Virus record (IMG/VR): IMGVR_UViG_2939147180_000005
Coordinates: 1 to 38,436 of that record
DNA length: 38,436 nt
Reading direction: 5' to 3' (one strand)
Origin: a virus
Lineage: Duplodnaviria; Heunggongvirae; Uroviricota; Caudoviricetes
The translations under genes were made by a program, and so were the position numbers. The notes beneath the pieces are model-generated. The model had not been told where the DNA came from. It worked only from the letters and a program-made list of their open reading frames with translations, and did not search any database. Below are positions 9,326 to 35,626 of the stretch, piece by piece. The first letter of the stretch is position 1, and each line of letters opens with the position of its first letter.

Positions 9326-10636
9326 TTAAATCCGAAGTGATGTGACTCTTCCGGTCGGTTTGACAATAGGGAATTGCTTAACGATGAAATAACCTCCGGC
9401 ATCATTCGGGTGATCATTGCCAGATTTTTTATCAGGCTCCCCCTTCTCATCCCAGACCTGTTGCTCCAGAGATTCGGCATATAACGGGCAACGCTTCACA
9501 TTAACTTTATAGCGACGCTCACCATTGGCATTGCAGAACATTGCATTCATTGAGTTAACGCGATCTTTTACTGGCGGGTTCGAGCTGTTCACCACAACGT
9601 TAAAACCAGCCTGCTTAAGCTGGGCTATATCCGTCGTACTTGCGTTACTTGATTTTCTGGAATCCCCGGAAGCATCTGGATAAATATAAATTTCCCTCAC
9701 TTTCCGGTAATCATTCCCATCATACAGCCAGAAGCGTTCTTTAATGATGCGGATCATATCCGGCGTATCGTAGGCATTGATGATTTCAGTTACCGCACAT
9801 GGAAGCCCCAAACGCAGCACATGGACGATTCCCGCCATCTTTCCAACGTTAAAATCCATCCCAATATAAATCGACTCCCCTGGCTGCTCCACTTCTTCGC
9901 AATTATTCAGTTTCCGGTCAAACTGATGGTAAACAGTACCACTTGTCAGGTTAGTAAACTGTCCTCGCAGATAGGCTTTAATCAGCTCTGGAGGGTATGA
10001 TTCAAGAAGCGAAGGAATGTAATCTGCTGGCAGGTTCTTTTCATTATCGAAAGTAGATGCCTGCACCAGACCATACAGTGAGGCCAGCTCTGTTTTTTCA
10101 CGCACGGCTTTAACAAACTGCTCGTAGACAAATTTGAATCCTTCCGGCGTGGTTGTAACGTCAATACCGTTGCGAAGTCCATCAATCTTATAACGCATAC
10201 GCGCAATTATCTTGCGCCACGCCGTTCTGGCTTTTTCCTTCGGCAAAATGTCCAGTTCATCCACCAACGCATTACCAATTTTGAAACCGACGATCGTTTG
10301 TGGCTTCTCCATCGATCTGCAGATAGTGGTTCCCCGATACTGGCGTCCGTAATAAAAGTGAACCTCTTTATTTCCCTCATTAATTTTTACGTTCAATCCC
10401 CAGTCAGCAGCAACTTCTTCCACTGTAGGGTAAAAAATATCGCGAATTTGGGGATACGTTGGCGCAAAATATCCCTGATTTATACCTGGATGCTCCCAAA
10501 TCCCCTTGCATATGCCGCCACACCCAACCCATGTTTTGCCCGAGCCAAAACCAGCAATATAGGCTTTAAATTTATGGGGCATTGAAAGAAATCGCGCCTG
10601 AGGCACATTAAGCGTCGGAGAGATCATCTTCATCAC
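9326..10636 (-). CDS. Terminase large subunit
   Basis: 436-aa ORF with N-terminal Walker A (…YIAGFGSGKTWVG…) and a C-terminal acidic nuclease-like region. Confidence 0.8.
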   Translation of the reverse strand: MMKMISPTLNVPQARFLSMPHKFKAYIAGFGSGKTWVGCGGICKGIWEHPGINQGYFAPTYPQIRDIFYPTVEEVAADWGLNVKINEGNKEVHFYYGRQYRGTTICRSMEKPQTIVGFKIGNALVDELDILPKEKARTAWRKIIARMRYKIDGLRNGIDVTTTPEGFKFVYEQFVKAVREKTELASLYGLVQASTFDNEKNLPADYIPSLLESYPPELIKAYLRGQFTNLTSGTVYHQFDRKLNNCEEVEQPGESIYIGMDFNVGKMAGIVHVLRLGLPCAVTEIINAYDTPDMIRIIKERFWLYDGNDYRKVREIYIYPDASGDSRKSSNASTTDIAQLKQAGFNVVVNSSNPPVKDRVNSMNAMFCNANGERRYKVNVKRCPLYAESLEQQVWDEKGEPDKKSGNDHPNDAGGYFIVKQFPIVKPTGRVTSLRI

Positions 10637-11702
10637 TCCTTACTCTGGCATCAACCACATTAATATTGATCGCCACAGGCTGGGGATGTTCATTATCTTC
10701 CACCGTTTCGATCTCTTTGCGCAGCTTCTGGTTTTCCATTCTGCGCCGTTCAATTTCCAGTTCCTGTAGCCGCTTATCTGCACATAAAGCCCCACCAGCA
10801 GCAAGCAAACGCAACAATTCACGCCGGGCGGCAGCCTTATCCTCCAGCAGGATCTCAACACCAAATTTTCCGAGCTTTGCCCCTGCATATAATTGCCGCG
10901 CTTCCCCATCAAGCAGAGTGGTATCAGCCATATAAAGCTGCCCCGTTCCCTCACCGCAGCACTTCGGGCAGTCCGGATTGGGTATGGCGTTATCAACAAA
11001 GCCAAGGCCACCATATTCCGGCTCGGGTTTGCCATCTCTGGAGGCCTGCGCCGCTGCCTTATCGAATTCTGCTATATCGCGCCACTGGTAGTGATGATTC
11101 TCGCCCCAGCAATAACGGCAGTTAACACGGCGAAATTGTGCCAACTGATTGGGGTCGGCCTGGACAATGGCCATCAACTGACTCACCAGTAAATCCAGGT
11201 CTGCGGTATAGCGTTTCTGGTACTGATTGCGGAAGTAGCTGATAGCACGAAAAACCTTAGGATTTCTTAGGAGCTGGCTGGCGGTTACGTAGGCCGCATT
11301 CCCCTCTGACTCGTATCCTGCCAGGCGATATGCCTCAACGAGTTTTTTCCCCTGGGCAACCAGCATTGCGAATTTCGCCTGCTGGTCAGAAACGCCGAAT
11401 TCATCGGGACAGAACGAAATTTCTTCCGCATCGCCCTCATTCAGGTACGCATCGGATACTGGCTTTTTTTCCTGAGATTTTCCGTTCCGCTTTTGTGCAG
11501 TCTGCGCAGATTTTTTCTGCGCACTTTTTTGCGCAGTTTTGCGCATTTCTGTCTGCGCATTTTTCGGAGGTTTTTTGATGTAACGACGGGCTGTTGCGTA
11601 ATTCAGTCCCCTTGCTTCACACCATGCCACCGGAGATATACCGGAGCGGGTGTATTCAGCAATATACTCCTGCTGCAACGCCCCCCAGTCCGGTCTGCTC
11701 AT
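10608..11702 (-). CDS. Putative terminase small subunit / DNA-packaging protein
   Basis: 364-aa ORF directly upstream of TerL: N-terminal HTH-like segment, basic AQK-repeat linker, C-terminal Cys cluster (CRYC…CPKCC). Confidence 0.5.
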   Translation of the reverse strand: MSRPDWGALQQEYIAEYTRSGISPVAWCEARGLNYATARRYIKKPPKNAQTEMRKTAQKSAQKKSAQTAQKRNGKSQEKKPVSDAYLNEGDAEEISFCPDEFGVSDQQAKFAMLVAQGKKLVEAYRLAGYESEGNAAYVTASQLLRNPKVFRAISYFRNQYQKRYTADLDLLVSQLMAIVQADPNQLAQFRRVNCRYCWGENHHYQWRDIAEFDKAAAQASRDGKPEPEYGGLGFVDNAIPNPDCPKCCGEGTGQLYMADTTLLDGEARQLYAGAKLGKFGVEILLEDKAAARRELLRLLAAGGALCADKRLQELEIERRRMENQKLRKEIETVEDNEHPQPVAININVVDARVRSDEDDLSDA

Positions 11703-19179: not shown

Positions 19180-19440
19180 TCAATCGTCTTCAAAAGCAGA
19201 AAAGCCAGCTTTTAATCCAATTTCTTTTAATGTCCGTAATGATGTGACAAATTCATCTTCACGCAACATAAATCCGTCCGTCACATGCCCATTCAAGAGA
19301 TATATTAACATAGCCCCACTAGGCTGTTGCAAAGCCCGTGAGCAATGAATGCAGTAACAACTAATAATTTCCCCATTTTCAACGCGCACAGCATAGAGAC
19401 CATCTTTATTAAAAATTTTGCGCAACTTCTTGAAATCCAT
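19180..19440 (-). CDS. Hypothetical protein
   Basis: 86-aa ORF with ATG start; no motif recognised. Confidence 0.4.
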   Translation of the reverse strand: MDFKKLRKIFNKDGLYAVRVENGEIISCYCIHCSRALQQPSGAMLIYLLNGHVTDGFMLREDEFVTSLRTLKEIGLKAGFSAFEDD

Positions 19441-20444: not shown

Positions 20445-23006
20445 TTAATATTTGAATCTTTTGTTTGGTATGATTTTCAGTTTTTTTGCTAAAGCCGTTA
20501 ACTTTCTTAAGCGCCACTTAAGGGTGGACTCAGTTAATCCTTCCCCTGCAATACCTTTAAAAATTTCATAACAAGGCTGACCAGCGTGTATTGCTTTCCA
20601 GAAATCCTCATAGCCGTCATCAAGTATTTGAGCTGTAAGTGCCTCATTAAGCTCTTCAATATTAGATACTGCTAAGTGCCCATCGACTAAAACACCAGCA
20701 TTATTTAAATCAGATTTTGCTTTAAGCGCTTCTTTTCCAGTAGGCTCTTTACCGTTCAGTATCAAGCTGGTAACTTCAATCATTTTAGCGTGAGATGTTA
20801 CAGGGAAGAAAAGCCCTTTATTTCCTGCCCTTAAGCCCGAAATTTTCTTAAGATTTCCTAACTCAGCTGTTGCATCATTATGCGACACATCTGAGGCAAT
20901 AATGCGACCTTCCCCATCAATTTCTATAATTTTTAGGGCAAGTAACCATGACTTTAAAATCGTAGAGTATAATCCCCATGTTTTCTCTGATGCCTCAATA
21001 AAAGGATAAGACTCAGAAAAATACGTGGGTATATCGCTCTCGAAAACTTTTTCTCCAGAAAGAATTTTTTTAAGTAAAGTCTCGACGAGTTGATTGTCTA
21101 AAATTTTTCGGCGTAGATAACCAGCAAGGGTTCCTTGAGAATATATATCCCTAACATTGGTTGGAATTATCCATTCACCACTTTTAACTGCATCAAGCAA
21201 GTCTAAATTCCGCAATTCCTTAACGAGATTAAATGCGTAACCTTCCCTTACATTTAGGTTTTCCGTTATTTTTGTAATTGTCAGCTTTCTCATTGTTATC
21301 AGTTTATGAAACTGGGATATAACAGAGCTTGGATACATTCTATAAATAACCAGCAGTCTAAATTCAGGAAGCTTTTGGTAGACAAGATATTCTTTGAAAA
21401 CATCGTTATAAGTATCATAGGTAGAACCACTCAAGCGTACCAATCTGTAAGCTGTTAACTTATCGAGGACTTTTACAAGCATTGGGTCTTCGTCAAATTG
21501 GTATTGAAGCTCATTGAAATCTGCTGGTAGCTTAGCTGCAATCTTAACTAGATAATCTTTTTCAATCTCATCCAAACCTTCAAGCTCTTCTTCAAAAAGG
21601 TCGTTCAGTTTTAAGCCCGCACTGATTAAATCCCTCTGAGAGTCACCTTTTCGAGTGAGTTTTAAAACATGAGCTATCGTTCTCTTTAAAAGCCAAGGAA
21701 AACCCTGCGCAAATTCAATAATATAGGGTAGTATTTCTTTACTGAGAATATTAGAGTTATTTTCATTTATTTTTTCTAAAAGAAGTATTGATTCTTTGTT
21801 TTCAAAATCCGGAAGAGTAAAGCTTTTCGATAGCTGATTAATTCTATTAAGAGAAACTTTACTGTTGTCATAGGTTGTTAGCTGATCATTTTTACGCGCA
21901 AACACTATGTATACACCACCACGAAGCTTTGTTATTGAGTTCGCAATGTATTCATAGCAATCGAAAATGTCAGGATTCGAGAATGTAGATTCAAATTGGT
22001 CAACAAAGAAAACTGCCTTTTGGCCATTTAGTGAAAGTTGCAAGTCTTTCAGTTGTTCATCAAGTTCTATAAAATTAGTCGCAATAATGCTGCTTTGGGT
22101 AAACCTCTGAACAAGATAAAAAACATCATATATTGTTTTTACATCCCTTGAGTCATGTAATTCAGTAATAACCCCATCCATTGAGAGCTTGTTTTCTAAA
22201 AAGGATACAAGAGAGCTTTTTCCTACTCCAGAGCGACTTTTTATCTGAAGAACATGTGGTAGCTCATTATGTTTGATGTGAGAAAGAAGTTCACCTATGA
22301 ATTCAGTCCTGCCAACGAACACAGTTGGCCCTGCAGGTAGCCTATAGTCAGCCCATTCAGTCCCAACAGTTAATCCTCGAACTATTTCACGCTTTACTTG
22401 AGGCATTTCGTCAACTATTTTTTTCTTGCTAGGCATAATGAAATCCAAACCAGCAAGTTCTGAAATCCCTATTTTTAAATTTTCCAAAAATCTTTCATCA
22501 TCAATTTGGCTGCCACTTTTATTGAATACCACAAAATTTGATGGCGTTCCTGAATTTACCTCTTTTAAAATAAATAACTTATACAACCCCGTATCAGTCT
22601 TGAGAATGTTTGGGGCCACAAGGTCATAACCTTTAATTTCCTTATGTAGAGATGTTTCAGTCGGCAAATGCAAAGTCGCAGTTATTTGGTTATAAAGTTC
22701 CTTTCCTACCTTTGTCGTTAACCCCATATTTTCGACAGTTCGAAAATAATCTTCCGCCTCCGGTGTTAATGGTGATAATGACAGAAATAATCCATGCACC
22801 TTTTTTTCCAGAAGACCTAGCGGCAAAAGCTTTCCAACGAACGCAGCAACTGTTTGTCCACTCATGCTTTTGCTGTGTGCTTTAGCTTCGCCAATAATCT
22901 TTTGGCCAGTTGCTCTAGAGAATCCTTCAATGTCGTACTCTAAACTAGATTCTTTTTTCCTTAACTCAATGTCGTATCCAGAGCCTTCCAAGTATTCTTT
23001 TAACAA
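20445..23006 (-). CDS. Mrr-like PD-(D/E)xK nuclease fused to a STAND-type P-loop NTPase with a C-terminal helical domain; candidate antiphage defence protein
   Basis: 853-aa ORF, AT-rich. N-terminus …YDIEG…IIGEAKAHSK (D…ExK); P-loop HVLQIKSRSGVGKSSL; Walker B AVFFVDQFE; GxP-like AQGFPWLL; ~400-aa C-terminal region without recognised motifs. Start is TTG at 23006; no upstream ATG. Confidence 0.6.
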   Translation of the reverse strand: MLKEYLEGSGYDIELRKKESSLEYDIEGFSRATGQKIIGEAKAHSKSMSGQTVAAFVGKLLPLGLLEKKVHGLFLSLSPLTPEAEDYFRTVENMGLTTKVGKELYNQITATLHLPTETSLHKEIKGYDLVAPNILKTDTGLYKLFILKEVNSGTPSNFVVFNKSGSQIDDERFLENLKIGISELAGLDFIMPSKKKIVDEMPQVKREIVRGLTVGTEWADYRLPAGPTVFVGRTEFIGELLSHIKHNELPHVLQIKSRSGVGKSSLVSFLENKLSMDGVITELHDSRDVKTIYDVFYLVQRFTQSSIIATNFIELDEQLKDLQLSLNGQKAVFFVDQFESTFSNPDIFDCYEYIANSITKLRGGVYIVFARKNDQLTTYDNSKVSLNRINQLSKSFTLPDFENKESILLLEKINENNSNILSKEILPYIIEFAQGFPWLLKRTIAHVLKLTRKGDSQRDLISAGLKLNDLFEEELEGLDEIEKDYLVKIAAKLPADFNELQYQFDEDPMLVKVLDKLTAYRLVRLSGSTYDTYNDVFKEYLVYQKLPEFRLLVIYRMYPSSVISQFHKLITMRKLTITKITENLNVREGYAFNLVKELRNLDLLDAVKSGEWIIPTNVRDIYSQGTLAGYLRRKILDNQLVETLLKKILSGEKVFESDIPTYFSESYPFIEASEKTWGLYSTILKSWLLALKIIEIDGEGRIIASDVSHNDATAELGNLKKISGLRAGNKGLFFPVTSHAKMIEVTSLILNGKEPTGKEALKAKSDLNNAGVLVDGHLAVSNIEELNEALTAQILDDGYEDFWKAIHAGQPCYEIFKGIAGEGLTESTLKWRLRKLTALAKKLKIIPNKRFKY

Positions 23007-23350: not shown

Positions 23351-24556
23351 CTGTGAGTTCAATCAGTGGATGCAACGCTATCCTTAATCAAGGGGGACGT
23401 TGCCATGAAACGAAGAACTCGGATTAACTACACGCCAGAGCAGAAGGCAATTATCTGGGACAGATATAAGCAAGGTGATTCTCTCCATGATATCGCCAGA
23501 ATGTTCGACAGATATCATTCTTCCATTATGCCCACTATCCACCAGACAGGGAGCTACCGTCCTCCCGTGCGAAAACGGTACCGATTAGCGCTTTCGCTTG
23601 ATAAAAGAGAGGAGATATCCAGAGGAGTGGTAGCAAAACTCAGTATCAGGGACATCGCCGCCAAATTATCAAAAGCGCCTTCAACGATTAGCCGCGAGGT
23701 CAGGAGGCACGGAGGTGCCAAACAATACCGTGCAGCAAAAGCCGATACTGCTGCATGGGAAAATGCTCTGAGACCAAAACCTTGCAAGCTAATTGAAAGC
23801 CCACATTGTGTAAAATCATTGCAGAGAAGATGCATCAGGACTAGTCGCCGGAACAGATCGCCGGCTGGCTGAAACGCTGTTATCCGGATAATCAGGAAAT
23901 GCATGTGTCACACGAAACGATTTATAAAACGCTTTTTATACAAACCCGGGGTGCATTAAAAAAAGAACTGCAGCAATGCCTCAGAAGCGGAAGAGCGGTT
24001 CGTAGATCCAGAACATCATCGCTTAAAGGGAAAGGGTTAGGGTCAATCCCAGATACGATACCAATAAGCGAAAGGCCACCTGAAGTTGCAGACAGAGCCA
24101 TACCGTGTCACTGGGAAGGTGACCTGATCCAGTGCTCGAAAAACTCCTTTATCGTCACCCTCGTAGAACGCCATTCCCGCTTTGTTATGCTGGCAAAAAT
24201 CAGAGACAACAAGACCATAACGGTTATATCTGCACTCATCAGACAAGCCCGGGAATTACCTGTTGAGCTTTATAAAACACTAACATGGGACCGGGGCGCT
24301 GAAATGACCAGCCATACCCGGTTTACTGTAGCGACAGATATTCAGATTTATTTCTGTGATCATCAATCTCCATGGCAACGCGGCTCAAATGAAAATACAA
24401 ACAGATTACTCAGACAGTATTTTCCAAAAGGAACTGACTTATCAGTTCACACAGTGTTGCCAGACAGCTCAACGAGCGGCCAAGAAAAACGCTAGACTAC
24501 GAATCACCCGCAGAACGGTTCAATAAGTGTCTTGCGTCCATCAGTTTAACTCACAG
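23351..24556 (+). mobile_element. IS30-family insertion sequence with decayed transposase
   Basis: Imperfect terminal inverted repeats CTGTGAGTTCAATCAGTGGATGCAACGC (23351-) and CTGTGAGTTAAACTGA on the opposite strand (-24556); internal ORFs are homologous to IS30 transposase. Confidence 0.7.
23366..24495 (+). pseudogene. IS30-family transposase, disrupted by a frameshift near 23806-23810, an in-frame TAG at 23842-23844 and a C-terminal frameshift
   Basis: N-terminal HTH part (23366-23872) and DDE catalytic part (23899-24495, …HWEGDL…TWDRG…QSPWQRGSNENTN…) are in different frames; the bridging frame reads …KIIAEKMHQD*SPEQIAGWL… where IS30 has Trp. Confidence 0.75.
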
Positions 24557-24689
24557 CGAAAAGCAGAAGTTCAAAATTTTTCATAACGACTGATGAGAAC
24601 AACTCCAATTATCAAGTTTACTGGTACCTCTGCCAAGCGTACTTAGAGGTCTATGTCTAAACCACCCGCCATGCAGGTGGTTGATTTAC

Positions 24690-27009: not shown

Positions 27010-27735
27010 TCACTTTTCCGACACAATACGACTGGAGGAATCGACAATCTGACGGACAATGTCCTGGTGCTTGTTCAGCTCACGCAGCGCGGCGCAGACT
27101 CGCTCCCACTTCTGGACATGACTTTTCGCCCGGCGCAGTTCGCGGTTTGCCATTTGCAGCGATGGTAAAATCAGGTCATTGGCTCGCGTTTCAGTGAACG
27201 ATGGTAGTGACTGCACAATGTCCCCCACAGTATCTGTTTTAATTTCTTCCTGTGTTGCCGCTTCCTGTACTGGTAACGCAACACCGGCTGGCTGAGGAAA
27301 GCCTTTACCAGGTGTTTTAACTACCGATACAACTTTCGGCTCTGCTGGTAAATTACCGTCCGGCAGGCAGTAATGAAATTTACCGTTCTGATTTACGCGA
27401 ATCAGACGACCTTTGCTGATGGCCATAGCCAGCGATGAGTTCACCCTGCGGGAAGTAATTCTGAATATCAGTGCAAGTTCATCAGCCGCTTTAGGGCCAT
27501 GCTGTTCAATCGCCTCGATCAGCATTTGCGCTGTCACTTTAGAAGCCTGTGCCACAGATGCGTTTTCGTCGGTTTGAGTCAACCACCACATCGGGCCCTT
27601 GTTATCAGCTTCCCCGCGACGCTTCAGTTTCCACAGCTCGTTAATCGCCTCATCCCGGGTCATTCCCAGACGTGCTGCCACTTCCTGGGAAGAGGCTTTT
27701 CCCATTGCTTTCAGTGCGTCAAAAACGGTCTCCAT
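27010..27735 (-). CDS. Prophage protein downstream of the DnaC-like gene (YdaW/DUF1627-like)
   Basis: Start METVFDALKAMGK… with GGGAGG RBS; N-terminal HTH-like region; family from memory. Confidence 0.45.
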   Translation of the reverse strand: METVFDALKAMGKASSQEVAARLGMTRDEAINELWKLKRRGEADNKGPMWWLTQTDENASVAQASKVTAQMLIEAIEQHGPKAADELALIFRITSRRVNSSLAMAISKGRLIRVNQNGKFHYCLPDGNLPAEPKVVSVVKTPGKGFPQPAGVALPVQEAATQEEIKTDTVGDIVQSLPSFTETRANDLILPSLQMANRELRRAKSHVQKWERVCAALRELNKHQDIVRQIVDSSSRIVSEK

Positions 27736-28504
27736 TAAAATTTCCTCCCGGTAAAAATTGCTTCTCAATTCCTGGCTGACCAACATTCGGGCGCCAGCTC
27801 TCCCAGTTAAAATTCACCCATCGCCCGCCGTTCATGGTCATCCGATCCATAATCCTCTCGCCGAGCAATGTTTTCATGGCCTCATAGTTCAGGTTTGTCA
27901 GCATCCCCACGCTGCGGATCGACGCTGTCCGGCGATCAACAATCTGGTGCAGTACCACCTGCTCGTTTTTTGTCTCGCACTGAATGCCAATTTCATCAAG
28001 AACCAGCAGATCCACTTCGCACAGTTCCCGCAAAAATTTTTCGCCTGATTGCCCGTCGTCATAGCTGGCGTGTAGAGCACTCATAACATCAGCCACGGTA
28101 ACCACAATCACTGTCTGACCGTTTTTCAGCAGGCGATTCCCGATAGCCGCCGCCAGATGGTTTTTTCCGGTACCAGGTTTTCCGCTGAACGCAAAATTTG
28201 TACACCCGACCATCAGTTCATCGGCGATGGATTTCGCCTGGCTCAACGCGTATCGCTGGCCGTCGTTCTGCACCTGGTAATTCGAAAACGAGCATTTGCG
28301 GTGCAACGGCTGGATGCCGGAGCGATTCAGAATTTTTTCCACCCGCAACTGACGATTCTGGCGATTGATCTCCTCGCAACGTTTCTGGCCTTCTGCAAGT
28401 TGCCACTCGCGCCACTCCGCCACCGTCCTGAATGGCGCGGTTACATGTGACGGGGCCAGTCTGCGGATACGTTCCAGAACGCCGCCTGTCGCAATATTTT
28501 TCAT
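27719..28504 (-). CDS. ydaV: DnaC-like replication protein (helicase loader, AAA+)
   Basis: Walker A …FAFSGKPGTGKNHLAAAIG…, Walker B …LLVLDEIG…; 261 aa. Confidence 0.8.
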   Translation of the reverse strand: MKNIATGGVLERIRRLAPSHVTAPFRTVAEWREWQLAEGQKRCEEINRQNRQLRVEKILNRSGIQPLHRKCSFSNYQVQNDGQRYALSQAKSIADELMVGCTNFAFSGKPGTGKNHLAAAIGNRLLKNGQTVIVVTVADVMSALHASYDDGQSGEKFLRELCEVDLLVLDEIGIQCETKNEQVVLHQIVDRRTASIRSVGMLTNLNYEAMKTLLGERIMDRMTMNGGRWVNFNWESWRPNVGQPGIEKQFLPGGNFNGDRF

Positions 28505-28510
28505 GGTCAG

Positions 28511-29305
28511 TTACCCCCTGAAGCCTGGCGGGATCGCACTGTCCGGCAACGAGACGGTGTTAACCTGTCGGAGCAACGTCTCAGGCCGAACACCTTTCGG
28601 CGCGAACAAGCCCTGGTATTCATTGGCGATGCTGTGTCGAATCACCTGCTCAGGGGTAAAACCCTGCTGGCGGAATTTTTCCAGTTCCCGTATCGCCCCG
28701 TTAGCGCCCTGCTCCGTTCGAATCGGTTTTCGCAATGCCTGCCTGAACTGGACCCACTCATTCCAGAGTGTTTCTGGCAACCAGTCGGGCAGAGCAATGG
28801 CCTCCGGCTCGAATTTTTTAGACGCTCGTTTTTGCCGAGGGGGATTTAGGGGGAGATCAGTATTTTTATCTTCCTCTTCCTCTTCCTCTTCCTCTGGTAA
28901 CGCTTTTTGATCCGTTTGTGTAACGCTGGCAGCGTTACCTTTTCGCTTCAGTTCGCGTATTTTTGTAACTCTCTCGTTTGTAACCGCCCGTTTTTTCGAG
29001 CTTTTTCCGTTATGACGCTCAAAGTTAGGTAGTGAAAGCACTCCATCACTTTCGACCAGCCATCCAACCTGAATTAACGCATCAGCAAAACCAGCCATAA
29101 AAGTGATACGGTCTATTGCACTTTTTGTAACACCTCGAGCGTTACACTCTGCGTTACCATCAATCATTTGTTGATCCGCCCATGCCCAGAATCGAATGAC
29201 CTTCCCTAATGCGGCATCTGGATCAATATTAAGAATCTCAGCAATCCTGAATATTTCCGGTTTATCCGGCGTAATAACTTCGAGCTTTATCCAGTTTGAA
29301 GCCAT
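28511..29305 (-). CDS. ydaU: Replication initiator-like protein (YdaU-like) with poly-Glu linker
   Basis: Start MASNWIKLEV… with AAGGTG RBS; internal EEEEEEEED linker encoded by (TTCCTC)4 on the plus strand; iteron-like palindromes lie in and upstream of the gene. Confidence 0.6.
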   Translation of the reverse strand: MASNWIKLEVITPDKPEIFRIAEILNIDPDAALGKVIRFWAWADQQMIDGNAECNARGVTKSAIDRITFMAGFADALIQVGWLVESDGVLSLPNFERHNGKSSKKRAVTNERVTKIRELKRKGNAASVTQTDQKALPEEEEEEEEDKNTDLPLNPPRQKRASKKFEPEAIALPDWLPETLWNEWVQFRQALRKPIRTEQGANGAIRELEKFRQQGFTPEQVIRHSIANEYQGLFAPKGVRPETLLRQVNTVSLPDSAIPPGFRG

Positions 29306-29383
29306 ATTGTTTTCACCTTGTAACGCTCGCAGCGTTACATTTAACTGATACCGAACAAAACGCTCCGGCACGATTAATTTCAA

Positions 29384-29806
29384 TCAATGCACTACGACAG
29401 AATCGCCGGATGATCCGCCGCGGCTGAAATGCGCTTTCCGGTAAACGGCCTGGACTGCATCATCATGCGCATCAATTGCCGTATTCAGCGCTTCCTGAGC
29501 CGCCAGTAATGCGCGACGTTCCAGGGTGTCAAAAACGCTGAGGCGGTGTCGCAGTTCGCGCGGAAGAATTGCCAGGATTGCAGGAATCAACTTCTGGATT
29601 TTTTCCCTTTGCGCCTTTGTTTCACCTTTTAACCAGCGGTGATAGATGTTTTGCTGATTGTTCCAGTCCTTGCCTGGAGCCAGGGCTAATTCACTCTCCC
29701 CCTGGCGCAAATATTCTTCAGTAATTGCGTTGGCAACCCACGCCTGACCTTTTTCGGCAGCCAGAGCTAACAACACTGATTCAATGTGCTCATGCCTGAT
29801 TTTCAT
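29384..29806 (-). CDS. ydaT: YdaT-like protein (cII-like regulator candidate)
   Basis: Translation from MKIRHEHIESVLLALAAEKGQAWVANAITEEYLRQG… resembles remembered Rac YdaT. Confidence 0.6.
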   Translation of the reverse strand: MKIRHEHIESVLLALAAEKGQAWVANAITEEYLRQGESELALAPGKDWNNQQNIYHRWLKGETKAQREKIQKLIPAILAILPRELRHRLSVFDTLERRALLAAQEALNTAIDAHDDAVQAVYRKAHFSRGGSSGDSVVVH

Positions 29807-30017
29807 GAATACCCTTACCCGCCCGCTTTGCCTTACGATATTTGTCATAGATATTTGAGTCGTACTGAAGCTCCCCGCCAGATGCCTCTTGCAGACGCAT
29901 CGCGCGGCCTTCAGGAACCAGTTCCCCCCATTGAGAAACAGCAGATGGATCAACGCCAGCAGCTTTCGCCACTTTGGCTTTCGTGCCGTAATAATTAATT
30001 ACGTCTGATTTAAACAT
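29790..30017 (-). CDS. ydaS: Cro-like HTH regulator (YdaS-like)
   Basis: Start MFKSDVINYYGTKAKVAKAAGVDPSAVSQW… with GGAGG RBS; HTH motif; divergent from racR across an operator-bearing spacer. Confidence 0.65.
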   Translation of the reverse strand: MFKSDVINYYGTKAKVAKAAGVDPSAVSQWGELVPEGRAMRLQEASGGELQYDSNIYDKYRKAKRAGKGIHENQA

Positions 30018-30026
30018 TGCACCTCC

Positions 30027-30049
30027 AATATTGAGTTTTCTCAATGTTA
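30027..30049. promoter_or_regulatory. Operator-like palindrome in the racR/ydaS divergent control region
   Basis: AATATTGAGTTTTCTCAATGTTA (TTGAG-N-CTCAA dyad) in the 77-bp spacer between the divergent HTH genes. Confidence 0.5.
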
Positions 30050-30094
30050 ATCACTCAAGGAATCTCAAGTCAAGGGTTATTAAGATATCTAAAT

Positions 30095-30502
30095 ATGAAC
30101 GAGAAAACTTTAGGTCAACGAATTAGAGAAAGACGCAAGCAGGTAGGCTTAAGTCAAAGTGGTTTAAGCAAAGCTGCTGGCGTTTCTGGCTCATCAATTT
30201 CATTATGGGAAAGTGACCATACAGCCCCGCGTGGGCAAAATTTGCATAGACTCGCCGAGGTATTACAATGCTCACCGACCTGGATACTGTTCGGTGATGA
30301 GGATAAAACTCCGGATGCCCCAGTTTCACTCAATAGCCCCTTAGACTTATCGGAAGATGAACTGGAGATGTTGCGACTGTATCGCGCACTTCCAAAATCC
30401 GAACAACAAGCACAAATCAGTGAACTCAGCGCTCGAGTTGAGAATTTTAATCGCCTATTTACTGAGCTATTAGAAGCTCGCAAGCGTAACAAACATCAAT
30501 AA
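30095..30502 (+). CDS. racR: Prophage repressor RacR (XRE-family HTH)
   Basis: MNEKTLGQRIRERRKQVGLSQSGLSKAAGVSGSSISLWE… is an XRE HTH; matches remembered RacR. Confidence 0.8.
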   Translation: MNEKTLGQRIRERRKQVGLSQSGLSKAAGVSGSSISLWESDHTAPRGQNLHRLAEVLQCSPTWILFGDEDKTPDAPVSLNSPLDLSEDELEMLRLYRALPKSEQQAQISELSARVENFNRLFTELLEARKRNKHQ

Positions 30503-30555
30503 TCACCCCATCACAAATTTTTAAAGCCTTACATTTCAATGTATTGGCTTTATCT

Positions 30556-30617
30556 TGAGTCAAATATTGAGTTTTCTCATCAAAAACACTTGACCAAAAA
30601 CAATGAGAAAACTAAAT
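30556..30617. promoter_or_regulatory. Second operator cluster (OL-like) downstream of racR
   Basis: AATATTGAGTTTTCTCA at 30564-30580 and its inverted copy AATGAGAAAACT at 30602-30613, plus CTTGAGTCAA at 30554-30563. Confidence 0.45.
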
Positions 30618-30770
30618 TACATCCCATCAAAACACCGCACGGTGTTCTCAGCAAACAGTTCCGCCACCCGGCGTTAAGGGGATACGAAGATGATCGCAGA
30701 TGAAAAGCAGGGACTGGTGTTAAAAATAGATACCAGCCCCCTGAGACATCAGATTGAGAAGTTATACAAA

Positions 30771-30962
30771 CTACTTGTTCCTGCGGTTTTTAACTGTCCG
30801 GATGATTTTATTGATTGTTTTATTAAAGTGTTCACTGAAATCAGAATCTTTGATTTCCGCAAAACAATCACCGCAGATAAAACGATCATTGTCAGAGCCA
30901 GAGTGCTCATCGATCTCAATGTAGCGAGATCGGCAATGAGGACAGCGAAATTTAATATCCAT
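30771..30962 (-). CDS. Small zinc-ribbon protein (possibly YdaF-like)
   Basis: MDIKFRCPHCRSRYIEIDEHSGSDNDRFICGDCFAEIK… has two CxxC pairs; AAGGA RBS; fully antisense to an alternative plus-strand ORF. Confidence 0.45.
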   Translation of the reverse strand: MDIKFRCPHCRSRYIEIDEHSGSDNDRFICGDCFAEIKDSDFSEHFNKTINKIIRTVKNRRNK

Positions 30963-31057
30963 AATTAATATCCTTACAGCAAATTACCATTTGTAAGGAT
31001 ATCACCTCACCTGATGTGGTTAAAAGCAGGTCGTAGGCTCCACGATACGGAGCAACT

Positions 31058-31255
31058 ATGAAGCCAATTCCCCCAGCGTTAAGGGAAAATGAGGTCAACA
31101 TGGATACTATCGATCTTAGCAACAACGAATCCCTGGTGTGTGGCGTGTTCCCCAACCAGGATGGAACGTTCACCGCCATGACGTATACCAAAAGCAAAAC
31201 GTTTAAAACCGAAGTTGGCGCGCGTCGCTGGTTGGAGAAGTACACAGTAAGCTAA
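31058..31255 (+). CDS. Small protein (YdaG-like); alternative start at 31100 (MDTIDL…)
   Basis: GGAG RBS before ATG 31058 and GAGG before ATG 31100. Confidence 0.45.
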   Translation: MKPIPPALRENEVNMDTIDLSNNESLVCGVFPNQDGTFTAMTYTKSKTFKTEVGARRWLEKYTVS

Positions 31256-31707
31256 CGATTAAAACGTCTGCTCCTACTGTTCCAGAATAACTTCATAAAG
31301 TGGGAGTATTTTTCGGTGACGAGATAATAAGAACAGTTTGCGCCATCACTCTGATGTTGAATGATGCCCTTCCGTTCTAATTTTTTCATAACCGGGTTAC
31401 GGCAAGGAGAAGTGATAATAAGATTTCCTGTTTTAAGGAAATCTTTAAATACAGCGATTTCTTTCTCAGATAAACGAAGCAATACTCGTTGCTCTGGTAG
31501 CAATGAATAATGTTTTTGAATATGTGCTCGCAATCTTGAGAAGGAAATGGCAACCACGAAAGAAAAGGCAAAAACTATAATCTGAAAGAGCCAGGTTATT
31601 TCAGTATAAGCATTAAATACGACAGCAAACTCTTTCGGTATCAGCCAGAGAGTGAGGCCAAAAATGATAATCGTGTACATAAGTCTTTCGATGTGGCTCT
31701 TTAGCAA
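31252..31707 (-). CDS. sieB: SieB-like superinfection exclusion membrane protein
   Basis: 151-aa ORF with two N-terminal TM helices (…MYTIIIFGLTLWLIP… / …WLFQIIVFAFSFVVAISF…); position between immunity region and kilR. Confidence 0.55.
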   Translation of the reverse strand: MLKSHIERLMYTIIIFGLTLWLIPKEFAVVFNAYTEITWLFQIIVFAFSFVVAISFSRLRAHIQKHYSLLPEQRVLLRLSEKEIAVFKDFLKTGNLIITSPCRNPVMKKLERKGIIQHQSDGANCSYYLVTEKYSHFMKLFWNSRSRRFNR

Positions 31708-32182
31708 AAAGTTTCAACAATGGAGTAAATACATCCAACATTTCAATAACTCTCGACTGTAAGGGTATTGAAATGTTAACACAAGCTCTCGCTGTAGGGG
31801 TATAGCCGAGACCACCGAAGCCCGGAGGTGGTGAAATAAAACCGGGCACAACACGAAGGCGCATTTCCGATATCCATAAAGAGTCGGTCTTGTCTGTTAA
31901 ATATAAATGGTGGGAGTGCGCCTCCGGTTGTGAATAACGACATTGCTGTGTGTAGTCCTGGCGGCATCAGTTTTTTTCTTGAAGTTCGGCTGATGTCCGC
32001 CCTTTTTAAAGTGAATTTTGTGATGCGGTGAATGCGGCTAAGCGCACGTGGCACAGTTAAAAGTCATGTTAGTCCTTATTGGTTTGGGTGGGAAAGCCGA
32101 CTGTAATTGTTAACTGGTTGCAGTCACCTGGAGGCACCAGGCACCGCATCAACAAAGTTCATTTGTAAAAATGGAGATAATT

Positions 32183-32404
32183 ATGATTGCACATCACTTC
32201 GGAACTGATGAAATACCACGTCAGTGTGTGACTCCTGGCGATTATGTTCTTCATGAAGGCCGGACATATATTGCCTCGGCAAACAATATTAAAAAGCGAA
32301 AACTATATATTCGTAACCTGACCACAAAAACATGCATTACTGACCGCATGATTAAAGTCTTCCTCGGTCGTGATGGTTTACCTGTAAAGGCGGAGTCATG
32401 GTGA
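32183..32404 (+). CDS. kilR: KilR, FtsZ-inhibiting killing protein
   Basis: [73 protein letters not shown] matches remembered KilR; GGAG RBS. Confidence 0.8.
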
Positions 32405-32574
32405 TGACTAAGAAAATAAAATGTGCTTACCACCTTTGCAAAAAAGACGTTGAAGAAAGCAAAGCTATTGAAAGAATGCTTCACTTCATGCACGGGGTTT
32501 TATCAAAAGACGAACCGAGAAAATATTGCAGTGAAGCTTGTGCCGAAAAAGACCAGATGGCACATGAACTTTAA
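32404..32574 (+). CDS. ydaE: YdaE-like small Cys-rich protein
   Basis: 56 aa, [56 protein letters not shown]; start overlaps kilR stop (TGATG); below the ORF-track cut-off. Confidence 0.75.
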   Translation: MTKKIKCAYHLCKKDVEESKAIERMLHFMHGVLSKDEPRKYCSEACAEKDQMAHEL

Positions 32575-32648
32575 TTAATTGACTATTCGAAACTGAATTT
32601 ATGCCAGAAATGGCAGGTATTCGCTCAACCTTAATTAAGGAGAAAAAC

Positions 32649-32924
32649 ATGATTACCAATTATGAAGCCACTGTTGTAACTACCGATGACATTGTTCACG
32701 AGGTGAATCTGGAAGGAAAGCGCATTGGCTACGTAATTAAAACAGAAAATAAAGAAACCCCATTCACTGTGGTTGATATCGATGGTCCATCAGGCAACGT
32801 AAAAACACTTGATGAAGGTGTCAAAAAAATGTGCCTGGTGCATATCGGAAAGAATCTGCCCGCAGAAAAAAAAGCCGAATTTCTGGCAACTCTAATTGCA
32901 ATGAAATTAAAAGGTGAAATCTGA
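32649..32924 (+). CDS. racC: RacC protein
   Basis: Start MITNYEATVVTTDDIVHEVNLEGKRIGYVIK… with AAGGAG RBS; matches remembered RacC. Confidence 0.8.
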   Translation: MITNYEATVVTTDDIVHEVNLEGKRIGYVIKTENKETPFTVVDIDGPSGNVKTLDEGVKKMCLVHIGKNLPAEKKAEFLATLIAMKLKGEI

Positions 32925-33025
32925 AAGAAATAGCCTGCGTATGGCGCAGGCTATGAACAGTGTGTATCCGGCAAGATCATTCACTGAACAAAACGAATTT
33001 TAATCTGAGTTGAGGTTAAAAAACA

Positions 33026-35626
33026 ATGAGCACAAAACCACTCTTCCTGTTACGGAAAGCGAAAAAATCATCCGGTGAACCTGACGTCGTCCTGTGGGCA
33101 AGCAACGATTTTGAATCGACCTGTGCCACTCTGGACTACCTGATCGTTAAGTCAGGTAAAAAACTGAGCAGCTATTTTAAAGCTGTTGCCACGAATTTTC
33201 CTGTCGTTAATGACCTGCCCGCTGAAGGTGAGATCGATTTTACCTGGAGTGAACGCTATCAACTCAGCAAAGACTCCATGACATGGGAACTAAAACCGGG
33301 AGCAGCACCAGACAACGCTCACTATCAAGGCAATACCAACGTCAACGGCGAAGACATGACTGAGATTGAGGAGAATATGCTACTCCCAATTTCTGGCCAG
33401 GAACTGCCCATTCGTTGGCTTGCTCAACACGGCAGCGAAAAACCGGTAACGCACGTTTCACGCGACGGACTCCAGGCATTACACATTGCTCGGGCTGAAG
33501 AACTACCGGCTGTTACTGCCCTGGCTGTTTCCCACAAAACCAGCCTGCTCGACCCGCTGGAAATTCGCGAACTCCACAAACTGGTTCGTGACACTGACAA
33601 AGTTTTCCCTAATCCTGGTAATTCAAACCTGGGACTGATAACTGCTTTTTTCGAAGCATACCTGAACGCTGACTACACCGATCGAGGACTGCTGACAAAA
33701 GAGTGGATGAAGGGTAATCGTGTTTCACACATCACTCGCACGGCTTCCGGTGCTAATGCTGGCGGCGGAAACCTCACCGATCGCGGCGAAGGTTTCGTAC
33801 ACGATCTGACGTCACTGGCGCGCGACGTAGCCACTGGCGTACTGGCCCGTTCAATGGATCTGGACATCTATAACCTTCATCCGGCACACGCTAAACGCAT
33901 TGAGGAAATTATCGCTGAAAATAAACCGCCCTTTTCTGTTTTCCGCGACAAATTCATCACCATGCCTGGCGGGCTGGATTATTCCCGCGCCATCGTGGTT
34001 GCGTCCGTAAAAGAAGCACCAATTGGGATCGAGGTCATCCCCGCGCACGTCACTGAATATCTGAACAAAGTACTGACTGAAACCGATCATGCCAACCCTG
34101 ATCCGGAAATCGTGGATATTGCCTGCGGTCGCTCCTCTGCCCCGATGCCGCAGCGAGTAACAGAAGAAGGAAAACAGGATGATGAAGAAAAACCGCAACC
34201 ATCTGGAACAACGGCAGTTGAACAGGGAGAGGCTGAAACAATGGAACCGGACGCAACTGAACATCATCAGGACACGCAGCCGCTGGATGCTCAGTCACAG
34301 GTAAATTCTGTTGATGCGAAATATCAGGAACTGCGGGCAGAACTCCATGAAGCCCGAAAAAACATTCCATCAAAAGATCCTGTCGATGCCGATAAATTGC
34401 TTGCTGCATCACGTGGTGAATTTGTTGACGGAATTAGCGACCCGAACGATCCGAAATGGGTAAAGGGGATCCAGACTCGCGATTCTGTGTACCAGAACCA
34501 GCCAGAAACGGAAATAATCAGCCCGGATGCGAAACAACCTGAGCCAGTAGTGCAACAGGAACAGGAAATAGTCTGCAATGCCTGCGGTCAGACTGGCGGG
34601 GATAACTGCCCTGACTGTGGTGCGGTGATGGGCGACGCAACATACCAGGAAACATTCGGTGAAGAGAATCAGGTTGAAGCTAAGGAAAAAGATCCGGAGG
34701 AAATGGAAGGCGCTGAACATCCGCACAATGAGAATGCTGGCAGCGATCCGCATCGCGATTGCAGTGATGAAACTGGCGAAGTCGCAGATCCCGTAATCGT
34801 AGAAGACATAGAGCCCGGTATTTATTACGGAATTTCGAATGAGAATTACCACGCGGGTCCCGGTGTCAGTAAGTCTCAGCTCGATGACATTGCTGATACT
34901 CCGGCACTGTATTTGTGGCGTAAAAATGCCCCCGTGGACACTACAAAGACAAAAACGCTCGATTTAGGAACCGCTTTCCACTGCCGGGTACTTGAACCGG
35001 AAGAATTTAGTAACCGCTTTATCGTAGCACCTGAATTTAACCGCCGTACAAACGCCGGAAAAGAAGAAGAGAAAGCGTTTCTGATGGAATGCGCAAGCAC
35101 AGGAAAAACGGTTATCACTGCGGAAGAAGGCCGGAAAATTGAACTCATGTATCAAAGCGTTATGGCTTTGCCGCTGGGGCAATGGCTTGTTGAAAGCGCC
35201 GGACACGCTGAATCATCAATTTACTGGGAAGATCCGGAAACAGGAATTTTGTGTCGGTGCCGTCCGGACAAAATTATTCCTGAATTTCACTGGATCATGG
35301 ACGTGAAAACCACAGCGGATATTCAACGATTCAAAACGTCTTATTACGACTACCGCTATCACGTTCAGGATGCATTCTACAGTGACGGTTATGAAGCACA
35401 GTTTGGTGTGCAGCCAACTTTCGTTTTTCTGGTTGCCAGCACAACTGTTGAATGCGGACGTTATCCGGTTGAGATTTTCATGATGGGCGAAGAAGCAAAA
35501 CTGGCAGGCCAGCAGGAATATCACCGCAATCTGCGGACCCTGGCTGACTGCCTAAATACCGATGAATGGCCAGCTATTAAGACGTTATCACTGCCCCGCT
35601 GGGCTAAGGAGTATGCAAATGACTAA
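33026..35626 (+). CDS. recE: RecE, exonuclease VIII (full length, 866 aa)
   Basis: [30 protein letters not shown]… N-terminus and C-terminal nuclease domain match remembered RecE; GAGG RBS. Confidence 0.9.

Follow-up and report, generated by a model that had tools for sequence, protein, structure and literature searches.

A close known counterpart of the locus considered here is the dicA-dicC-dicBp region of the Qin prophage of Escherichia coli K-12. Going by the citation of Bejar 1988 in PMC10448788, the operators in the dicA-dicC spacer and in the region between dicA and dicBp are likened to those of lambda PR and PL. In vivo, DicA binds the operator Oc (TTGTTAGTCATAACTAACAA), represses dicC and activates dicA, with Om and Oa remaining unbound in that assay (Yun et al., 2012; PMC3441716), and deletion of dicA derepresses dicBp 22-fold (Ragunathan et al., 2023; PMC10448788). 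DicA lacks a RecA cleavage site (Ala-Gly bond), and in K-12 the antirepressor Rem brings about a 165-fold derepression of dicBp; homologues of dicAC, rem, dicB and dicF are also found in the functional temperate phage mEp460_ev081 (PMC10448788). Further afield, the operator consensus of phage P22, ATTTAAGATATCTTAAAT, consists of TTAAG half-sites with four uncontacted base pairs between them (PMC5175364), and the RacR operators in the racR-ydaS spacer of the K-12 Rac prophage have been published (PMC11879457).

We consider it very likely that a motif recurring on both sides of a regulatory gene in the window (the whole stretch of 38,436 bp that was analysed) represents the repressor operators of a P22/Qin-type (dicA-dicC-dicBp) lambdoid immunity module in a defective Rac-like E. 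coli prophage. The locus combines divergent genes for an HTH and a Cro-like protein, homology of these proteins to those of the known modules, dyads of one consensus on both sides of the repressor gene, and operator sequences that change along with the recognition helix. Its architecture is textbook, known from the homologous Qin locus since 1988, and opens no new question; the immunity specificity is new in the sense of apparently undescribed, and a search with the operator sequence found here gave no match among the papers covered.

Gene content and setting of the module

In sequence the window does not differ from E. coli w264 (NZ_CP095088); it covers a defective Rac-like prophage with IS3 and IS30 elements, in which the tail-tube gene and sieB are frameshifted and which also carries trkG, kilR, racC, recET, xisR and intR. 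The region is mosaic, a Qin/mEp460-like immunity block being set inside the Rac-like prophage. A 10-bp repeat flanks a nearby cassette. The block occupies the same position as the immunity genes of K-12 Rac, between ydaF/sieB/kilR/recET and ydaS/ydaT/replication genes, and this sets it apart from Qin, where dicB lies downstream instead of kilR, racC and recET.

The divergent gene pair is separated by a 77-bp spacer (Table 1). The repressor has 135 residues, as does K-12 Qin DicA, to which it is 55% identical; its first 72 residues match the N-terminal domain of P22 C2 (1adr; E 2.7e-16), and its Pfam matches comprise HTH families alone (HTH_3 at 2.6e-15), with no match to a peptidase. The partner matches PF14549 (P22_Cro) at 1.8e-18, is 59% identical to DicC, and resembles P22 Cro (1rzs; E 1.3e-13), from which it does not differ in the recognition-helix residues AVSQW. 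Gene order equals that of Qin and, as there, a Rem homologue is present. P22 is likewise homologous in the C2 N-terminal domain and in Cro, and has two operator clusters flanking the repressor gene (the complex being available as PDB 2R1J). The DNA-binding proteins of lambda, on the other hand, are not homologous to those of the window at the sequence level used.

Several other assignments were rejected. The repressor does not belong to the SOS-cleavable class of lambda CI and P22 C2: with HTH families as its only Pfam matches and 135 residues, against 216 for C2, it is without the RecA-cleavable C-terminal S24 self-cleavage domain of these proteins. A longer reading frame from an ATG at 30044 (152 aa) was discarded, the extension being interrupted in Buttiauxella ferragutiae and homologues starting with MNE or MET. 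The names racR and ydaS, which the earlier note had given to the pair, have to be withdrawn, the former being apt as a positional label only. K-12 RacR (158 aa) shares no homology with the repressor beyond the HTH, the two are 21% identical in a gapped alignment, and a DNA search finds DicA-type loci, not racR; the partner, of P22-Cro/DicC type, scores 66.5 bits for P22_Cro and 21.7 bits for YdaS_toxin, against a cut-off of 30 for the latter.

Table 1. Features of the immunity module and associated genes in the window (window coordinates).
Feature	Position	Strand	Description
Rem-like putative antirepressor gene	19180-19440	-	adjoins hokD; 59% identical to K-12 Rem, E 4e-33
Replication gene	27719-28504		after the YdaT/CII-like gene
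Replication gene	28511-29305		after the YdaT/CII-like gene
YdaT/CII-like regulator gene	29384-29806	-	second gene of the cro-side operon; PF06254; phrog_163, CII-like activator (3.8e-36), record annotation
cro-like gene, P22 Cro/DicC family	29790-30017	-	first gene of the replication-side operon; protein WP_001406917.1
O1, OR1-like operator (predicted)	30030-30045	.	ATTGAGTTTTCTCAAT, perfect 16-bp dyad; adjoins the -10 of the cro-side promoter and lies over its predicted start site
cro-side promoter, PR analogue (predicted)	30044-30073	-	TTGACT-18-TAACAT, consensus scan
Middle site, candidate weak operator	30054-30069	.	CTCAAGGAATCTCAAG; right half-site (CTCAA) alone good; abuts the -35 of the cro-side promoter
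OR3-like dyad	30079-30094	.	ATTAAGATATCTAAAT; abuts the repressor start codon; half-sites TTAAG and TTTAG
Repressor gene, DicA-type, 135 aa	30095-30502	+	P22 C2-like N-terminal HTH; no S24 peptidase domain; protein WP_073511871.1
Hairpin after the repressor stop codon	30522-30552	+	-11.3 kcal/mol, z -3.4
O2, distal OL-like operator (predicted)	30566-30581	.	ATTGAGTTTTCTCATC; shortly before the -35 of the PL-like promoter
PL/dicBp-like promoter (predicted)	30590-30618	+	TTGACC-17-TAAATT, consensus scan; reads away from the 3' end of the repressor gene
O3, proximal OL-like operator (predicted)	30602-30617	.	AATGAGAAAACTAAAT; in the opposite orientation to O1 and O2; lies across spacer and -10 of the PL-like promoter

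Dyads and predicted promoters flanking the repressor gene

A search of the 38,436-bp window finds the exact 17-mer AATATTGAGTTTTCTCA twice, at 30027-30043 in the divergent spacer and at 30563-30579 downstream of the repressor gene. At up to three mismatches 0.13 matches to the 17-mer are expected by chance, and one of 100 shuffles gave at least two. Both places had been pointed out in the earlier note, which rightly saw the second copy and set it one base off, at 30564-30580; the TTGAG/CTCAA dyad that it described in the spacer lies at 30031-30044, and the inverted copy that it reported is present, with its core TGAGAAAACT (AGTTTTCTCA on the other strand) at 30604-30613 within a 16-mer at 30602-30617. 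The 17-mer did not stand as the unit of the motif. Its 5' 'AATA' varies in relatives, among which AAGTTGAG is commonest, and the functional unit is TTGAGTTTTCTCA(A/T); judged from these alignments, the conserved unit is the dyad TTGAG-N4-CTCAA rather than the 17-mer. O2 and, on the other strand, O3 each differ from the perfect dyad of O1 by two mismatches, and a search for further copies within three mismatches of this 16-mer found none beyond O1-O3 in the whole window, so placed that all three flank one gene, that of the repressor. A fourth, partial copy, CGAGAAAACT at 30100-30109, was set aside as unproven: it falls in coding sequence (repressor codons 2-5), makes a poor dyad with five mismatches, and is lost in Buttiauxella.

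The dyads consist of two 5-bp half-sites with a 4-bp gap, as do the TTAAG-N4-CTTAA sites of P22, from which they differ in having TTGAG as the strong half-site. The positions of Asn32, Val33 and Gln37 of P22 C2, of which Val33 and Gln37 contact DNA, are taken by Gly, Ser and Leu in the window repressor, a replacement in line with the changed half-site. Unlike P22, the window has two clear sites only on its OL side. With lambda OR and OL it shares the divergent repressor and cro genes, a tripartite operator region with a spacing of about 24 bp and a second cluster at the leftward early promoter, the two clusters lying 536-580 bp apart here as against 2.4 kb in lambda.

Promoters were taken as consensus matches, of which a 1.4-kb scan yielded five where 2.9 were expected; the scan gave no convincing promoter for the repressor gene. 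The operators lie in or right beside sigma-70-like promoters, which face outward on either side. Transcripts would be expected to begin near 30037 on the minus strand and near 30625 on the plus strand, and a near-leaderless repressor mRNA at about 30093-30095. In relatives, the cro-side promoter keeps an invariant AGTCAAG at its -35 and the TAnnAT pattern at its -10, and the PL-like promoter keeps TTGACC and TAAATT but has a hypervariable stretch of 5 bp between its -35 and O3. The latter promoter reads into the ydaF, DicF-like RNA, kilR, racC, recET, xis and int side of the prophage. The same layout recurs in Qin: one strong dyad next to the cro-side -10, an operator-like dyad against the repressor ATG and, past the repressor gene, a TTGACC-17-TAAnnT promoter with an operator in its spacer and another 35-36 bp upstream, followed by a conserved leader. 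The corresponding O2 and O3 of the window, with O2 upstream, are 36 bp apart from centre to centre; this is a non-integral number of helical turns, at which side-by-side cooperativity is not obvious. A consensus fold of the leader following the PL-like promoter scored its second small stem alone, the automatic alignment having misplaced the first hairpin, and an Rfam scan of 29000-33200 (E up to 1) gave no known RNA family at 30000-30700. The hairpin after the repressor stop codon has a weak U-tract and was not called by the consensus terminator scan; it is possibly a terminator that parts the repressor transcript from the PL-like promoter.

Conservation of the sites and co-variation with the recognition helix

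Of 5426 complete E. coli genomes, 796 (~15%) carry the immunity block at about 90% identity, and two temperate phages, mEp460_ev081 and HannyBb, have the immunity region as well. Across 80 IMG/VR loci, representing 48 distinct sequences, the O1 core TTGAGTTTTCTCAAT is kept in 77 and the O3 core ATGAGAAAACTAAATTA in about 75, and the core of O2 is kept in relatives too, while bases just outside O1 vary, including 'AATA'; this set is made up of close relatives of the type found in the window and is not informative on co-variation. The two Buttiauxella species reach further: O1 is identical to that of the window at 16 of 16 positions in one and 14 of 16 in the other, and O3 at 12 of 16 and 15 of 16. 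In B. ferragutiae, whose repressor is 75% identical, 42 of the 48 positions of O1-O3 are retained, against 111 of 184 in the remaining non-coding DNA (Fisher p = 2.8e-4). Conservation in related prophages had been named beforehand in the earlier note as one of the points on which its reading should stand or fall, and the cores are kept both in the viral loci and in Buttiauxella.

Where the repressor of a relative carries another recognition helix, the dyads at the three or four corresponding positions are different too. In type A, that of the window, the helix GSSISLWES goes with dyads of the form TTGAG-TTTT-CTCAA. Type B, with the helix SHVSVSQWER, comprises K-12 Qin and a Citrobacter; its three corresponding positions are occupied by TTGTTAGTCATAACTAACAA-like dyads: TTGTTAGTCATAACTAACAA itself beside the dicC -10, and TATGTTAGCTATAGCATACA and TATGTTAGTCATGGCTAATC around a TTGACC-17-TAATCT promoter downstream of dicA, with TTTAGCATTAGCTAAC against the dicA ATG. 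In type C, from Citrobacter braakii, the helix SHATISLWES is accompanied by TTGTTGAGTTTATTTAACAA, TTGTTGAGTTTTATCACCAA and GGTTAGTAATCTTAACC, and in type D, from O157:H7, the helix AHVTISQWER by CCTTAGATTTTCCTAAGG, CTTAGGTTTTTCTACA and CTTAGGCTATTCTAAATT, with ATTAGAATTACCTAAT against the ATG. An own-type dyad is present at the O2 position in Qin, C. braakii and O157 alike. Even K-12 Rac, with its unrelated repressor RacR, has a like layout of a different operator, TTAGGC-N4-GCCTAA, which occurs in the divergent spacer and, by inspection, as a second pair downstream of racR, around a TTGACA-17-TATAGT promoter.

As read from these alignments, the co-variation of helix and dyad has the appearance of heteroimmune operator sets, and it is the strongest in-silico evidence for an operator role. 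Since both the operator sequences (TGTTAGT-N4-ACTAACA in Qin) and the recognition helices differ, Qin and the window module would be heteroimmune towards each other. The reading of O1-O3 as operators is supported because the sites overlap promoters, their cores outlast diverged flanks, and the dyads follow the recognition helix. The proposal of the earlier note that two operator clusters reminiscent of OR and OL serve the replication-side and the recombination-side operon is likewise supported by promoter positions, conservation, co-variation and the layout of Qin. Moreover, with four or five heteroimmune variants in which helix and operator are paired, there is a natural series for studying specificity change in HTH domains of the P22 C2 type.

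The same comparison bears on whether the repressor is the protein for which the sites are made. In lambdoid phages Cro and the repressor share operators, and the P22-Cro-like recognition helix of the window protein fits such sharing, so that binding of Cro beside the repressor is expected and forms part of the preferred model. It is a different matter to suppose that O1-O3 are bound mainly by the Cro-like or the YdaT/CII-like protein and not by the DicA-type repressor, which we regard as very unlikely. The operator core follows the repressor helix, the strong sites of types A and C being different despite a common Cro helix, and in Qin it is DicA itself that binds Oc (PMC3441716) and represses dicBp (PMC10448788). 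As for YdaT, proteins of this family do bind within K-12 racR-ydaS spacers, but their box, TTGATT-N6-AATCAA, is a different motif (PMC11879457).

The inverted arrangement of O2 and O3 raises the further question of whether this pair acts in RNA, by forming a 3'-terminal hairpin in the repressor transcript that serves as terminator, stabiliser or processing site. The segment 30560-30625 does fold into a hairpin of 10-14 bp (-11.2 kcal/mol, z -4.0), and Buttiauxella, too, has O3 inverted with respect to O2. Yet an intrinsic terminator is hardly to be recognized in an AT-rich stem with a loop of about 22 nt, followed by AAAUUACAUCCC and no U-tract, and the terminator scan was negative. The would-be loop consists of a conserved -35 beside the hypervariable 5 bp, a pattern proper to a promoter and not to a loop; O1 has the same sequence standing alone, without a conserved partner; and the heteroimmune relatives keep self-symmetric dyads at each position, not merely complementary arms. 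A separate hairpin, moreover, already follows the repressor stop codon. A primary role in RNA has, on this evidence, only a slender chance of being correct, and the two dyads are better read as operators of the PL-like promoter. That the repeats arose by chance or were left behind when mosaic phage modules recombined, with no regulatory role, is next to impossible, for all that the region is mosaic and a 10-bp repeat flanks the nearby cassette, because the cores are retained across genera beside flanks that have diverged and the dyads co-vary, four other immunity types having different dyads at the same promoter-relative positions, and because an exact 17-mer pair and an inverted core within 590 bp go far beyond chance.

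A proposed switch

For this module we infer binding and its stoichiometry, the site preference of each protein, the transcription start points, cooperativity and the route of induction along the following lines. A dimer of the DicA-type repressor would bind the 14-16-bp TTGAG-N4-CTCAA dyads. Occupation of O1 would block the leftward promoter and keep the cro-like, ydaT/cII-like and replication genes off, while occupation of O3, helped by O2, would block the rightward PL/dicBp-like promoter. With the latter blocked, the early-left operon comprising ydaF, the DicF-like RNA, kilR, racC, recE, recT, ralR, xis and int should fall silent. The switch thus presumably silences the cell-division inhibitor kilR, the DicF-like RNA and recET in a defective prophage. 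The repressor being without a self-cleavage domain, its release is likely to be RecA-independent, and induction would probably proceed by way of the Rem-like antirepressor or through a Cro switch or spontaneous flip, and not through RecA. What this yields is the probable operator sequence, with the arrangement of promoters, of an immunity type present in ~15% of complete E. coli genomes and in viable phages.

Weak sites between O1 and the repressor start codon

The tripartite OR is the arrangement of lambda and P22, and in lambda OR3 serves both autoregulation and the shut-off of the repressor gene by Cro. In the window, O1, the middle site and the OR3-like site have their centres at 30037.5, 30061.5 and 30086.5, that is, in steps of 24 and 25 bp. 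The middle site has six mismatches to the consensus, and its role as an operator is uncertain; at the corresponding position the O157 type shows CCTAAG, a half-site of its own kind, beside AGTCAA. The OR3-like site (TTAAG-ATAT-CTAAA) has four mismatches in either orientation, each of its half-sites being one base off TTGAG, and has a nearly P22-type core, one base off that of the P22 crystal operator. It is invariant in types A and C and is kept together with its flanks in 72 of the 80 loci, and in types B and D the same place, against the repressor ATG, is taken by an operator of their own type. By analogy with Qin, where Oc alone, and not Om or Oa, is bound by DicA in vivo, the two weak sites may not work for the repressor. 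Through the site at the repressor ATG, the Cro-like protein would probably turn the repressor gene off, and the repressor may also regulate itself there.

One might go further and speculate that the OR3-like site serves Cro alone and is common to different immunity types, the repressor and Cro having drifted to different operator dialects. We think this unlikely, although it would have consequences if it were true: Cro made by one prophage could silence the repressor gene in a neighbour of another immunity type, which would allow cross-induction between co-resident and nominally immune-independent prophages. The idea is suggested by two lineages, types A and C, which have different repressor helices and different strong operators and share a P22-Cro-like Cro helix (DPSAVSQW and DRSAVSQW, respectively).

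Sites beyond the repressor gene and the leader that follows

In the Rac DNA of K-12 (L004, 2620-2700), we found RacR-type dyads, ATTAGGCATAGCCTAT and ATTAGGCATTACCTAT, overlapping a TTGACA-17-TATAGT promoter directly 3' of the racR stop codon. Judged from their sequence, these dyads would constitute an OL-like cluster; in the literature examined, discussion of RacR operators is limited to sites in the racR-ydaS spacer.

Past the PL-like promoter, sequence comparison revealed that immunity types A (the window), B (K-12 Qin) and D (O157:H7) share a conserved leader with the hairpin AACACC-GCAC-GGTGTT. The leaders of Buttiauxella and Citrobacter instead display an AATCAC(T)-N4/5-(A)GTGATT stem at the equivalent position, and an invariant CTCAG follows either version. 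In a further small stem, CGCC-ACCC-GGCG, a single compensatory change (CGCT...AGCG) is seen. A structured 5' UTR is one possible reading of this leader, a nut/put-like element another; it has no match in Rfam.

While in mEp460 and Qin the leader runs straight into ydfA, in the window a cassette intervenes before ydaF, with copies of GCGTTAAGGG in direct orientation on its two sides (30671-30680 and 31076-31085). The annotated plus-strand ORF of this cassette has no family match. Because the antisense zinc-ribbon ORF matches phrog_5602 (7e-5; also Lar_restr_allev, weakly), the cassette's coding strand may be wrongly annotated.

Features of the prophage outside the operators
Feature	Position	Strand	Remarks
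Candidate YdaT box GGTATTCATGAAAATCAG	29796-29813	-	overlaps ydaT-like start codon
Leader after PL-like promoter	30620-30689		stem elements at 30631-30646 and 30662-30673
Cassette, ~390 bp	30685-31075		between conserved leader and ydaF
Annotated ORF, 92 aa	30690-30968	+	inside cassette
Antisense ORF, 63 aa	30771-30962	-	two-CxxC zinc-ribbon; phrog_5602 match
DicF-like RNA candidate	31947-32002	+	sub-threshold Rfam match
STnc100-like RNA candidate	32004-32190	+	sub-threshold Rfam match
Restriction endonuclease gene, 2.5 kb	20445-23006		cargo
IS3, IS30 pseudogene, frameshifted tail-tube and sieB genes	9699-10912, 23405-24593, 592-1555, 31252-31741		basis for calling prophage defective

Further regulatory candidates

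Since no Shine-Dalgarno is present upstream of the repressor ATG (30079-30097, gatatctaaatATG) and a TAAGAT hexamer at 30081-30086 would put a start site at ~30093-30095, the repressor mRNA may be leaderless, like that of lambda cI from PRM. The dicA gene of Qin similarly lacks a Shine-Dalgarno. The candidate box at the ydaT-like start codon agrees at 14 of 18 positions with the published YdaT box of K-12, ATGATTCATGAAAATCAA (PMC11879457), and may represent a CII-like autoregulatory or PRE-type site. Immediately 5' of kilR, Rfam matches fall short of the gathering score for both DicF (39.1 bits where 48 is needed; E 3.6e-6) and STnc100 (35.5 where 47 is needed). Their place is equivalent to that of the annotated sRNA KilS in K-12 Rac.

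State and relatives of the prophage

E. coli-type DicA immunity regions also occur in bins named Bacillota, Veillonella parvula and Collinsella (L005, L006, L010); these are almost certainly Enterobacteriaceae contigs placed in the wrong bins. The prophage of the window itself is defective: IS3 interrupts its small terminase gene, frameshifts affect both the tail-tube gene and sieB, and an IS30 pseudogene is present. Its cargo includes trkG alongside the restriction endonuclease gene.
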